This document shows, in pieces, positions 33,482 through 49,639 of a DNA stretch of 64,000 nucleotides. The notes beneath the pieces were generated by a model, which saw nothing but the letters and a program-made list of their open reading frames with translations, made no database searches and had not been told where the DNA came from. Location of the stretch: NCBI GenBank assembly GCA_963783375.1, contig CAWANH010000028.1, forward strand, positions 672,001 through 736,000. Direction: 5' to 3'. This DNA is from Candidatus Eiseniibacteriota bacterium. Its GTDB lineage: Bacteria > Eisenbacteria > RBG-16-71-46 > JABDJR01. The translations under genes and the position numbers were made by a program. Each line of letters opens with the position of its first letter. Position 1 is the first letter of the stretch.

Positions 33482-36056
33482 ATGAAGTCCACCCTCGTGG
33501 CTCTCTCAGTCCTCGTTTTTCTCGCGGTCCTCCTCCCCCCGCCCGCATCCGCCCAGCCGGGCGGCCAGTCGGCCTCGGTGGTCGCACTCCACGTCCAGGC
33601 CCACAACACGAAGGGGCTCGGCTGCGCCAACTTGAGCTCGGCCCTTCCCTGCAGCGATTACACCACCGAGTGGCCGTTGCACTCGGCGGCGGACGTCTAC
33701 CTGGTAGTGGCGAAGGCGCAGCCCAACCTGGGCATCAGCGCGGTGAGCTGCGGCATCAAGTACGACGCCCTCGGAACTCTGACCGACGGCGTCGGATGCG
33801 ATGTCTTCGGTTACACCTTTTGCTCCGACCTGGAATACACCAACAGCGCCGACGGGAACCCGCAGCACGAATGGCCCTATTCGGGGGGTGGGGACCGCCT
33901 GATCTGGGTCCGCACCTCGAACTGCCAACGGGACGAGATCGCACCGGACGGGGTGCATGCGGTGGCCTGCGCGTTCTACGTCTACGCCTATAGCGCCGAC
34001 CGGTTCGAGGTGACCCGAAACATAAACCTGATCTACCGGGCCCGAGTTTCGAGGTCGTGGACTGCATCGGCCCCGCGCTCTGGGACCTGTTCTATCCCGA
34101 CGCCGCGGGAGTAATCGGCTTCGGCCAGACAGGGTACAACCCCTGTACGCGCGCCGGAGGGGGCTGGAGCGATCTGTACCTGGTCGGGGCCACCGGCGTG
34201 GGGGGATCGAACCTCGTGACGGTGCACTTCAGCCTCGATGTGGCCGGGGGAGCCATCGATCCCTCCAACTATCGCGTTTACCGGACGTACAATCCGACGG
34301 ATGAACTGGGAGTCACCGGGGCTTCGGTCACCGGTTCCACCGTGGTCCTTACCCTGGACGGGGCGCTGCTCGGAACCGGCGACTACACGGTGGAGGTCTC
34401 GAACGTCGAGGACACGAACGGGAATGCGATCTTCCCGGGCTCGACCGCGAATTTCATCGCCAGCGGCGGGGATACCGCGCCGCCCACCCTGGTCAGCGCC
34501 GACGGCACCGGAGGCACCGACCAGGTGACGGTGACCTTCAGTGAAAACGTGATCTACGGCGCGAGCGTCGCGTCCAACTACACGGTGTACCCGACCTCCG
34601 ATCCGTCCTCGCCCCTCGTCGTGTCCGGAGCGACCCGGCTCAACAACGTGGTCACGCTCTATCTCGGGTCGAGCCTGGCCGGCTCCACGTCGTACACCGT
34701 TTCCGTCTCCAACGTTCAGGACGCGGCCGGAAACTCCATCGCTTCCAACTCGACCGCGAGCTTCACCACCGGGGGGGACAACACGCCGCCGACTCTATCG
34801 AGCGCCGCCGGCACAGTCGGCCAGAGCACCGTCGCCCTCACGTTCAGCGAGACTCTGGGGGCCGGGGCCAACACCGCCGCGAACTACGGCGTCTTCCCGA
34901 ACGCCGACCCGTCCTCGCCGCTCACGGTGACCGCGGCGTCCAATTCCGGGAACCAGGTCTCCCTGACCCTGGGCTCGGCCCTCGCGGGGGCTCGACCGCC
35001 TACACGGTGACCGTCTCCAACGTCCAGGACGTTGCCGGAAACACCATCGCTCCCAACTCGACCGCGAGCTTCACCACCGGAGGGAACGACACAACACCTC
35101 CCGCCCTCACCAGCGCCGTGGGTACGCCCGGTTCCAACAACGTGACCGTGCGGTTCAGCGAGCCGGTAGTGGCAGGCACGGCCGAAGTGTCGAACTACAG
35201 CGTGTACCCCACCGCCAACCCTTCGGGAACGCTCGTGGTGAACGCGGCGGTGCCGACGGGATCCCAGGTGAGCCTCGCCCTGGCCTCGAATCTGGTTGCT
35301 GGCACTTCGTACACGGTAGCGGTTTCGAACGTTGCCGATGCGGCGGGGAACGTGATCGCGCTGAACTCGACCGTGAGCTTCACCACCGAGGTGATCGGAG
35401 CGCCCGGCGATCAGTCCGGAGCGGTGGTGGCACTCCACGTCCAGGCCCATGACACAAAGGGCCTGAACTGCACCGACCTGGATCCGAATCTCCCGTGTGA
35501 CCGGTTCATCCACACCTGGCCGACGGGTTCGGGGGCCGACGTCTTCATGGTGATCTGCATGGGAGACCCGGTGGTCGGCGTGAGTGGCGTGAGCCTGGGC
35601 GTCCAGTACGCCAATACCGCCACCTTGGCCGACGGGGTGGGCTGCGACGTATTCAGCTACACTGCCTGTTCGGATCTCGAGTACCCCAACAGCCCGGACG
35701 GCAACGTCGCCCACGAGTTCCCGTACTCCGGCGGGGGCAACCGGCTGATCTGGGTGCGGACCTCCAACTGCCAGCGCCACGAAGTGGATTCGTGGGGGGT
35801 GCAGGCGGTGGTGTGCGCGTTCTACGTCTACGCGTACGGTCCCGACCAGTTCCAGGTGGACATGAACCGGAACCTCGAGACCGGTCCCGAGTTCCAGATC
35901 GTGGACTGTCCCGGGCCGTACCTGTCGGATATACCGTGGCCCGAACACGCCGGCGTCGTCGGGTTCGGCCAGGACCGCTCCGGCTACAGTCCCTGCACCG
36001 CGATGGTGCCCACGGTGAGGACGACCTGGGGGAAGCTCAAGAACCAGTACCGGTGA
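33482..36056 (+). CDS. Secreted protein: Cys-rich domain, four Ig-like repeats, second Cys-rich domain, TWGKLK tail (frameshifted into 3 ORFs)
   Basis: Signal peptide; ORFs 33482-34114, 34057-35010 and 35007-36056 join at about 34034-34050 and 34986-34991; duplicated VVALHVQAH...GYxPC domain. Confidence 0.8.
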
Positions 36057-48962: not shown

Positions 48963-49639
48963 CTAGTTGTACTGCTGCTTGATGGCGCTCCAGGTCGAGG
49001 GCTCGACCGGGGTGCTCTGGGCGCAAGGCAGGGTGATCGAGGCGTGGGTCGGCGCGGTGGCCGAGACGTCGTCGATCCAGTACTGGGTGGAGCAGCTGTC
49101 GCAGGTGGACGGGCTGCTGTAGAGGCGGGCACTCGACCACCAGGGCCGTCCCGGTGGTCACGTTGGCGTCCAGAGTCCAGGTGTAGCTGATCTCTTCCCA
49201 CCCGATGCCGGCAGCTGTAGGTGCCTCGGACCGCTGGCGCTTCCCGCGTAGCTGTTCACGTCGCCGGTGATTGGCCCAGTGTCCCCAGATCCGGAGGGAG
49301 GGGGAGCCGCCGGGGTGGTCATCGAAGGCCCAGAAGCTCGCGGTCACCGAGTCGCCGTCCGGGAGCCCTTCGATGTAGGCGATGTAGGCCTGGGGGGTCC
49401 CGCTATGGGGATCCTCGGTCAGGGTCAAGGAATGGGTTCCGGTGTGAACCGGGTTCGCCGGGCTGGTCACGTTGGCCACGCCGACCAGGTTGAGCCGTAG
49501 GCTGCCCAGAAGTGGTGCTGGTCCCGTCTTCCCAGCTGCAGCTCTCGGTGTGGGTCGTCTGGGCAGCGGCCAGCATGGGCACTCCGATGATGAGCGCGGC
49601 CGCGGCCAGGGTCACTGCGGCGATTCGTAGCAAACGCAT
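48963..49639 (-). pseudogene. Secreted protein with TWSAIK tail, broken by several indels (pseudogene or assembly error)
   Basis: Signal peptide MRLLRIAAVTLAAAA; coherent segments in three frames; ends VEPSTWSAIKQQYN-stop. Confidence 0.7.

Follow-up and report, generated by a model that had tools for sequence, protein, structure and literature searches.

The window analysed here, 64,000 nucleotides of a Candidatus Eiseniibacteriota genome (assembly GCA_963783375.1, contig CAWANH010000028.1, positions 672,001 to 736,000 of the forward strand), contains two genes, gene 1 and gene 2, whose exported products end in the same tail of about 16 residues, here called the TWG tail. Our data indicate that this tail very probably is a genuine address tag for proteins that are exported, one not yet catalogued. 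An operon outside the window, encoding a predicted outer-membrane barrel and a series of lipoproteins, is the candidate reader of the tail, and judged from sequence and structural models we place this assignment slightly below even odds (about 0.45). The further step, in which the modelled barrel would be the export pore of a new secretion system that runs parallel to type IX secretion and accepts its tag at either end of a protein, appears doubtful. New in this report are N-terminal copies of the motif, a lineage-restricted tail on a membrane protein, the phylum-wide synteny of the barrel gene and its lipoprotein genes A and B with secDF, and the finding that A has the motif built in while B is tail-less.

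The tail and its carriers

The tail follows the consensus [VT]-P-[VT]-E-x-T-[TS]-W-[GS]-x-[ILV]-K-x-x-Y, in which W and K never vary, owing to the way the seed was constructed, and is usually followed by 0-2 residues before the stop codon (57 of 71 tails). The Q of the ending KxQY, given for the two window proteins by the first-pass annotation of this DNA, is not a conserved feature, being present in 12 of 63 copies, with L in 24 and R in 13 at the same position. A regular expression applied to six frames of the 4.73-Mb genome gave 71 matches at most 10 residues from a stop and 21 farther away, and the iterated tail profile gave 66 matches at most 6 residues from a stop. The other profile matches of at least 18 bits numbered six, four of them 8-13 residues from the stop, one N-terminal and one in a short frame. 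After de-duplication 67 distinct tails were obtained, the two of the window included, 62 of them with a gene model; about 1.8% of the predicted proteins of the genome carry the tail. Two open reading frames (ORFs) ending in ...SWGALKAGGY (G000:C9:2417-3382 and C28:1788802-1789773) fit the loose expression, not the profile, and may be degenerate tails; they lie just behind genes for proteins with a type IX C-terminal domain (CTD).

In 3,727 gene calls of our own, made with a simple dicodon model, the core [TS]W[GS]x[LIVM]K occurs 67 times in 63,359 near-terminal positions and twice in 1,262,865 internal ones, which corresponds to an approximately 670-fold enrichment per position. In the same gene set the tail profile matched 66 of the real C-termini and none of 74,540 shuffled ones. 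Since the profile was trained on these very tails, the positional and the shuffle contrasts are the fair tests, and they rule out chance as the origin of the tail. By a crude hydrophobic-core test, 48 of 62 carriers have a signal peptide, compared with 687 of 2,712 other proteins free of transmembrane segments further on, and with 57 of 88 CTD proteins; the 14 carriers that fail have, by eye, mostly wrong starts, frameshifts or contig ends. The genome-wide profile count and signal-peptide co-occurrence, proposed earlier as a check, thus show the tail strongly enriched at the C-termini of signal-peptide proteins. No transmembrane segment was found in the tails, the top 19-residue Kyte-Doolittle mean in the last 40 residues of 62 carriers being 1.56, and in this respect the initial description was correct. 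Nor does the tail match a catalogued sorting domain: searches of Pfam, NCBIfam and PDB sequences gave no match, and none of 53 tails matched the sorting-signal models of Pfam and NCBIfam at E up to 1. A published description was not found in an open-access library.

With the tail removed, 65 gene models, among them a few duplicates from small contigs, fell into 41 BLAST groups, choice-of-anchor families included, which bears out the idea of a tail shared by unrelated proteins. The carriers are small (median length 223 residues, against 719 for CTD proteins) and rich in cysteine (2.0% against 0.8%). Five of 63 carriers passed NCBIfam cut-offs, namely for choice-of-anchor X (2), E, V and W, and matches to choice-of-anchor F and PepA were below cut-off; cupredoxin, lamin-tail, beta-helix, X25 and phosphoesterase domains were also seen. 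Six of the 65 carriers have paralogs, with identity up to 54%, whose C-terminus is a type IX CTD in place of the tail. These paralogs, together with the choice-of-anchor cargo, indicate that the tail fills a slot that other sorting signals fill. Tandem NTF2-like proteins of two or three domains also have the tail at their end (P0045, P0051, P0055, P0059, P0080 and others), and a few members with a single domain have two tails in series (P0063, P0085, P0122).

The distribution was examined in 121 genomes of one phylum, Ca. Eisenbacteria, and the tail profile matched 118 of them, with dozens of tails per genome in most and highest counts of at least 72. The narrow lineage specificity assumed at first is therefore not borne out, the tail being phylum-wide. 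Genomes of family f5 have 0-5 tails each, and 18 loci read from five f5 genomes were ordinary signal-peptide cargo. When viral contigs were scanned with one narrow pattern, two matches came up, one of them a real tailed ORF: L150, an IMG/VR contig of 39 kb classed as viral, encodes a complete TWG tail on an ORF that begins like a signal peptide. This contig may be host DNA.

Position of the motif

The motif is not confined to C-termini. In one protein family it stands directly after the signal peptide in 7 of 7 examined members, these being the protein of this genome and those of six homologous loci, all from family f1. The member found here (G000:C28:1279421-1280092; L015:4422-5093, minus strand) is a secreted protein of 223 residues with a Cys-containing hydrophobic C-terminal region; it may resemble bacteriocin precursors, and with this query such proteins were seen only in f1. 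A second case is a predicted single-pass membrane protein (helix near residue 71) encoded behind an extracytoplasmic function (ECF) sigma factor. Twenty loci were read among 36 genomes with a match, and the tail was present in 5 of 5 homologs from f1 and in 0 of 15 from other families. The ECF sigma factor and its partner lie at G000:C28:1952951-1954739 (L014), between a TonB/ExbBD-like cluster and motAB-like genes. From its position and topology we infer that the partner is anti-sigma-like; it is predicted to sit in the inner membrane, and it might sense occupancy of the receptor of the tail. Lipoproteins also carry the tail.

Cleavage with C-terminal transpeptidation is hard to reconcile with these findings, because the tag occurs at either end and on proteins that are already anchored. 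This suggests that the tail is a binding epitope reachable from the periplasm, and speaks for a docking tag that stays uncleaved rather than for a sortase-type signal. The first-pass annotation had described an export or anchoring signal processed by an undescribed system: the signal is supported, the obligate C-terminal position does not, cleavage is doubtful and docking gives the better fit. As for the processing enzyme or outer-membrane channel expected there, a candidate channel was found and no enzyme was identified.

The barrel-lipoprotein operon as candidate reader

The candidate operon (G000:C28:943351-948916; L013:3352-8917) comprises rsmA, a gene for a protein of at least 593 residues and genes for five related lipoproteins, and is followed by a divergent polysaccharide deacetylase gene, secD and secF. 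Three of the five lipoproteins carry full tails and are paralogs of B. An AlphaFold model of the large protein, which leaves out some N-terminal residues upstream, has 28 long strands (pLDDT, the predicted local distance difference test, 90) and shows no plug over the 593 residues covered. The structure that matches it best is that of MtrB (PDB 6r2q chain B; Z 18.0, root-mean-square deviation 8.5 A over 472 residues, TMq 0.47, 8% identity), and many barrels score close to it. The protein had no match in Pfam and none among PDB sequences below E 0.18, and a weak PorP/SprF match was obtained for 1 of 26 members (21.6 bits against a cut-off of 90.55). The barrel is neither the LptD nor the SprA of the genome, both being encoded elsewhere. 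A broadened profile located it at one locus in 114 of the 121 genomes, a few of these loci being split over contigs (a narrower first profile reached 67), and lipoprotein A was found in 113. The gene for A directly follows that of the barrel in 112 of 113 cases, with a gap of 30-278 bp, and secD lies downstream in 8 of the 13 loci that were read. Scanning a genome collection for relatives of the barrel gave five loci, three labelled Eisenbacteria and two labelled 'uncultured bacterium'; a search of plasmids for A found nothing. The locus merits study as a core envelope machine, irrespective of any role in reading the tail.

Lipoprotein A (copy of genome G075) is modelled as an NTF2/SnoaL-like alpha+beta cone resembling ketosteroid-isomerase-like chains (TMt up to 0.78). 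Shortly after the last strand it ends in the consensus TWGxLR (12 of 23 strict, 21 of 23 loose), which in the model forms an ordered helix at residues 164-170 with a pLDDT of about 97, and a profile of this end matches the cargo tail with E 3e-4. A and B are homologous (probability 99.5). Among operon loci picked for adjacency of barrel and lipoprotein matches, 20 of 26 B proteins are without the motif and the other six carry it on a long linker. Weak DUF4440 matches were obtained for B, and its profile gave nothing significant in the PDB and family libraries. The simplest reading of these models would be that the NTF2-like fold accommodates the TWG helix at a site which A occupies in cis with its own end and which is free in B.

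These elements can be combined in a mechanism. The mobile tail of some 16 residues on unrelated proteins would be an uncleaved docking tag, read after Sec export by a conserved outer-membrane complex of the plugless 28-strand barrel and the NTF2-like lipoproteins A and B, and the complex would pass tagged proteins to the cell surface or tether them there. The Pro/Thr-rich first half of the tail would serve as a spacer and W-G-x-[IL]-K-x-x-Y would form a short helix for which the complex would have a site; B, mostly tail-less, is the simplest candidate, at the place where A inserts its own helix. The lipoproteins may plug or gate the pore, and the outcome could be either export through the pore or retention beneath it. 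As a new secretion system, the plugless barrel would be gated by the two NTF2-like lipoproteins, often encoded next to secDF, and would take small disulfide-rich proteins and lipoproteins by means of a helix of 10 residues that mimics or displaces the terminal helix of A.

Several points weigh against the operon as the reader of the tail. The alignment between the A end and the tail is short (14 columns) with an hhalign probability of 41%, A and B of the present genome carry only degenerate motifs, and the NTF2-like lipoproteins may simply be cargo. Tails make up 97 of 139 B-like matches, a share that is biased because the profile used to find B included the tail. In the Atlas, Bacteroidota is the group with the most A-like clusters, and the tail was sampled in Ca. 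Eisenbacteria. In family f5 the barrel is retained by 20 of 26 genomes, with 0-5 tails in each. Phylogenetic profiling, suggested earlier as a way to the machinery, cannot separate the barrel operon from type IX secretion (T9SS) within the phylum, because both are nearly universal (CTDs in 121 of 121 genomes). Seven genomes are without barrel and A, six of them low-tail f5 members; these are fragmented drafts, 85-94% complete, and for this reason were not used as evidence.

If the operon reads the tail, a new route across the outer membrane would be at hand and, to our knowledge, the shortest signal of its kind. The proposal is testable outside the uncultured host, the candidate reader consisting of three adjacent genes and the signal having the size of a synthetic peptide, and a tag of 16 residues that works at either end could be of use in surface display. 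Even under the rival explanations, the tail profile would mark many hypothetical proteins as envelope-targeted.

Alternative explanations

A serious rival, although in our opinion an unlikely one, would see in the tail a minimal type IX signal of small cargo proteins. PorV, SprA or some other shuttle would recognise it, and a PorU-like C25 enzyme might cleave it at the T-P/A-V-E linker. The genome has SprA, a PorU-like gene beside a PorV-family gene and six C25 genes, the PorU model scoring 401.6 bits against a cut-off of 420 and the PorV family scoring above its cut-off; GldM (TIGR03517) gave no match, and likewise none in 14 controls. There are 103 FlgD_ig matches, 96 of them near C-termini, the same cargo domains are found with either ending, and T-[GA]-V is frequent in the CTD linkers, which in this resemble the first half of the tail (49 of 96 fit a loose pattern). 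Known CTDs, according to the available text of PMC11969387, go down to 43-55 residues in Prevotella and are beta-sheets with motifs B, D and E, with a cleavage preference for PT/GI and a small residue at +1. In the tails this +1 slot is occupied by Pro in 55 of 63 cases, and W[GS]x[ILVM][KR] does not precede any of the 103 CTD matches of this genome. The N-terminal copies and the copy on a membrane-anchored protein also misfit C-terminal transpeptidation, and f5 genomes have at least 28 CTDs but 0-5 tails. The 70 tail ORFs and 96 CTD ORFs do not overlap, and co-location of tail genes with CTD genes is not enriched (6 of 62 against 47 of 687). A type IX-like locus at G000:C29:136743-153237 (L011, L012) begins with PorU-like, PorV-family and M6-peptidase genes and continues with two small barrel-like ORFs, a lipoprotein-like ORF, an unannotated 1,125-residue protein (weak SprA match) and an Omp85-domain piece. 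A report of type IX secretion in Eisenbacteria was not found in the open-access literature.

The tail could also bind phospholipid, lipopolysaccharide (LPS) or peptidoglycan directly as a short basic aromatic helix that needs no dedicated receptor, and its net charge of about +1.7, the helical spacing of Trp, Ile/Leu and Tyr, its position-independent use and the fact that no machinery tracks tail number are in line with this. Direct membrane binding is, however, weakened by the 10-residue core being no more amphipathic than shuffles (mean helical moment 0.27 against 0.30); proteins already lipid-anchored carry the tail too, and the strict conservation of W-G-x-x-K and Y suggests a protein pocket, so that this explanation appears improbable. 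A dockerin-like ligand, which docks cargo onto scaffolds such as the repeated Cys-rich domain of gene 1 and so builds a surface layer, is very improbable: gene 1 does look like a scaffold, with two Cys-rich domains joined by four Ig-like domains, its type is the largest cargo group (10 of 65) and a further carrier matches cohesin weakly (E 4e-4, which misses the cut-off), but a cohesin match was found in only 1 of 11 aligned Cys-rich domains (E 0.016), the domain has neither a PDB sequence match nor a profile match to the cohesin-like carrier, and the motif on lipoprotein A is left unexplained. Hardly credible is a pro-peptide or quality-control tag without a role in localisation, removed by a periplasmic tail-specific protease. 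A flexible spacer and a near-terminal aromatic residue (Y 0-2 residues from the stop in 57 of 71, as given above) would suit such a protease, but N-terminal copies and tails with 8-13 extra residues exist, and the cargo is of the kinds that other systems display on surfaces.

Genes 1 and 2 of the window

Gene 1 (33482..36056, plus strand) encodes an exported protein of about 856 residues, with a predicted Sec signal peptide, assigned by eye, at 33482..33553 (ending ...PPPASA), a Cys-rich domain, four Big_5 Ig-like domains, a second Cys-rich copy and the TWG tail, VPTVRTTWGKLKNQYR-stop, at 36006..36056; positions 36003-36056 read MVPTVRTTWGKLKNQYR-stop. The Cys-rich domain (33563-34027 and 35403-35987) is unnamed, has about 190 residues with conserved cysteines and a GVDVFGYTxCSDLEY-like motif, and occurs in ten paralogous carriers, the largest tail-bearing family of this genome. 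Gene 2 (48963..49639, minus strand) has a split frame and encodes an exported protein of about 225 residues without a family match in Pfam and NCBIfam scans. Its predicted Sec signal peptide, again by eye, is at 49562..49639 (ending ...MLAAA) and its tail, TPVEPSTWSAIKQQYN-stop, at 48963..49013, with 48963-49031 reading LPCAQSTPVEPSTWSAIKQQYN-stop. Both tails and both signal-peptide-like N-termini are thus present as first described. The two genes are, however, not single open frames, the earlier reading having crossed frame breaks.

In gene 1 the frames are 33482-34114, 34057-35010 and 35007-36056. Two single-base insertions, at 34031 and 34051 (34031..34051; runs X2, X4), and two surplus bases at 34986-34994 (34986..34994; runs X1, X2) are missing from short-read contigs, two runs agreeing at each break; the check rests on low-depth contigs from three soil runs of one soil study. 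Dropping the four bases gives 857 codons including the stop (856 residues), and intact paralogs of 860 and 853 residues are found at G000:C29:1344187 and C28:1099546. Gene 2 has indels of the same type between 49267 and 49513, its 3' part being barely covered by short reads. The breaks in both genes are most likely assembly errors; an assembly artefact as the source of the tail itself is rejected by the comparison with short-read contigs. Frameshift-type breaks are seen in several genes of the assembly, SprA (G000:C29:765039-771268) for instance lying in two frames; claims of gene loss from this genome need short-read checks.

Comparison with known systems

With MtrB and LptD/LptE, wide barrels in which a partner protein sits, the candidate barrel shares the lack of a built-in plug in its modelled part; it differs in its neighbours, which are NTF2-like lipoproteins and not cytochromes or LptE. 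The barrel of MtrB has 26 strands, compared with the 28 predicted here. This common wide-barrel shape, itself taken from a model, is no indication of function. The Slam/type XI system and the Borrelia LptD-like pore resemble the candidate in being dedicated outer-membrane barrels that move lipoproteins. Slam also moves soluble proteins, and its cargo is recognised through a folded barrel domain. The candidate barrel is unlike these in having no family match, in the presence of a separate LptD in the genome and in the putative signal, a short peptide. In the available text of 10.64898/2026.10.03.756453, the Borrelia pore is a wide barrel without the LptE plug and surface lipoproteins of Bacteroidota use an expanded LPS translocon, with no mention of NTF2 or SnoaL.

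PEP-CTERM/exosortase (TIGR02595, PF09721), GlyGly-CTERM, MYXO-CTERM and LPXTG signals are, like the tail, short terminal tags on small cargo, choice-of-anchor domains among it, and the VP[VT]E at the start of the tail is reminiscent of the VPEP of PEP-CTERM. Apart from the one N-terminal family, the tail also agrees with the CTERM signals in its C-terminal site on signal-peptide proteins of unrelated folds. It lacks, however, the hydrophobic segment and the terminal Arg cluster, the features that define tripartite CTERM signals in 10.1101/2023.06.07.544157, the main text of which contains neither 'TWG' nor 'Eisenbacteria'. The PEP-CTERM system of this genome itself consists of one exosortase and four PEP-CTERM proteins (TIGR02595), none of which is a TWG carrier. 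One PEP-CTERM gene is the immediate upstream neighbour, on the same strand, of a gene with a TWG tail (G000:C28:2014727-2015512 next to 2013779-2014438), and three terminal tags, TWG, PEP-CTERM and type IX CTD, coexist in the genome.

The type A CTD of the T9SS (TIGR04183, PF18962; FlgD_ig PF13860), which PorV/SprA read and PorU cuts, resembles the tail in its Sec-exported carriers, in the absence of a transmembrane helix and in its many copies per genome; the two are interchangeable on the same cargo domains, start with a similar T-x-V pattern in the linker and coexist in all sampled genomes. The tail differs in having about 16 residues and being predicted to be helical, compared with the beta-sheet of 43-82 residues described in the available text of PMC11969387, in the lack of motifs B, D and E, in the Pro at +1 and in its possible site at the mature N-terminus. 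Type B CTDs use PorP/SprF shuttles, as stated in the accessible part of PMC12618676. Taken as a whole, the tail works like a sorting signal, yet it belongs to neither the tripartite CTERM nor the T9SS CTD families.

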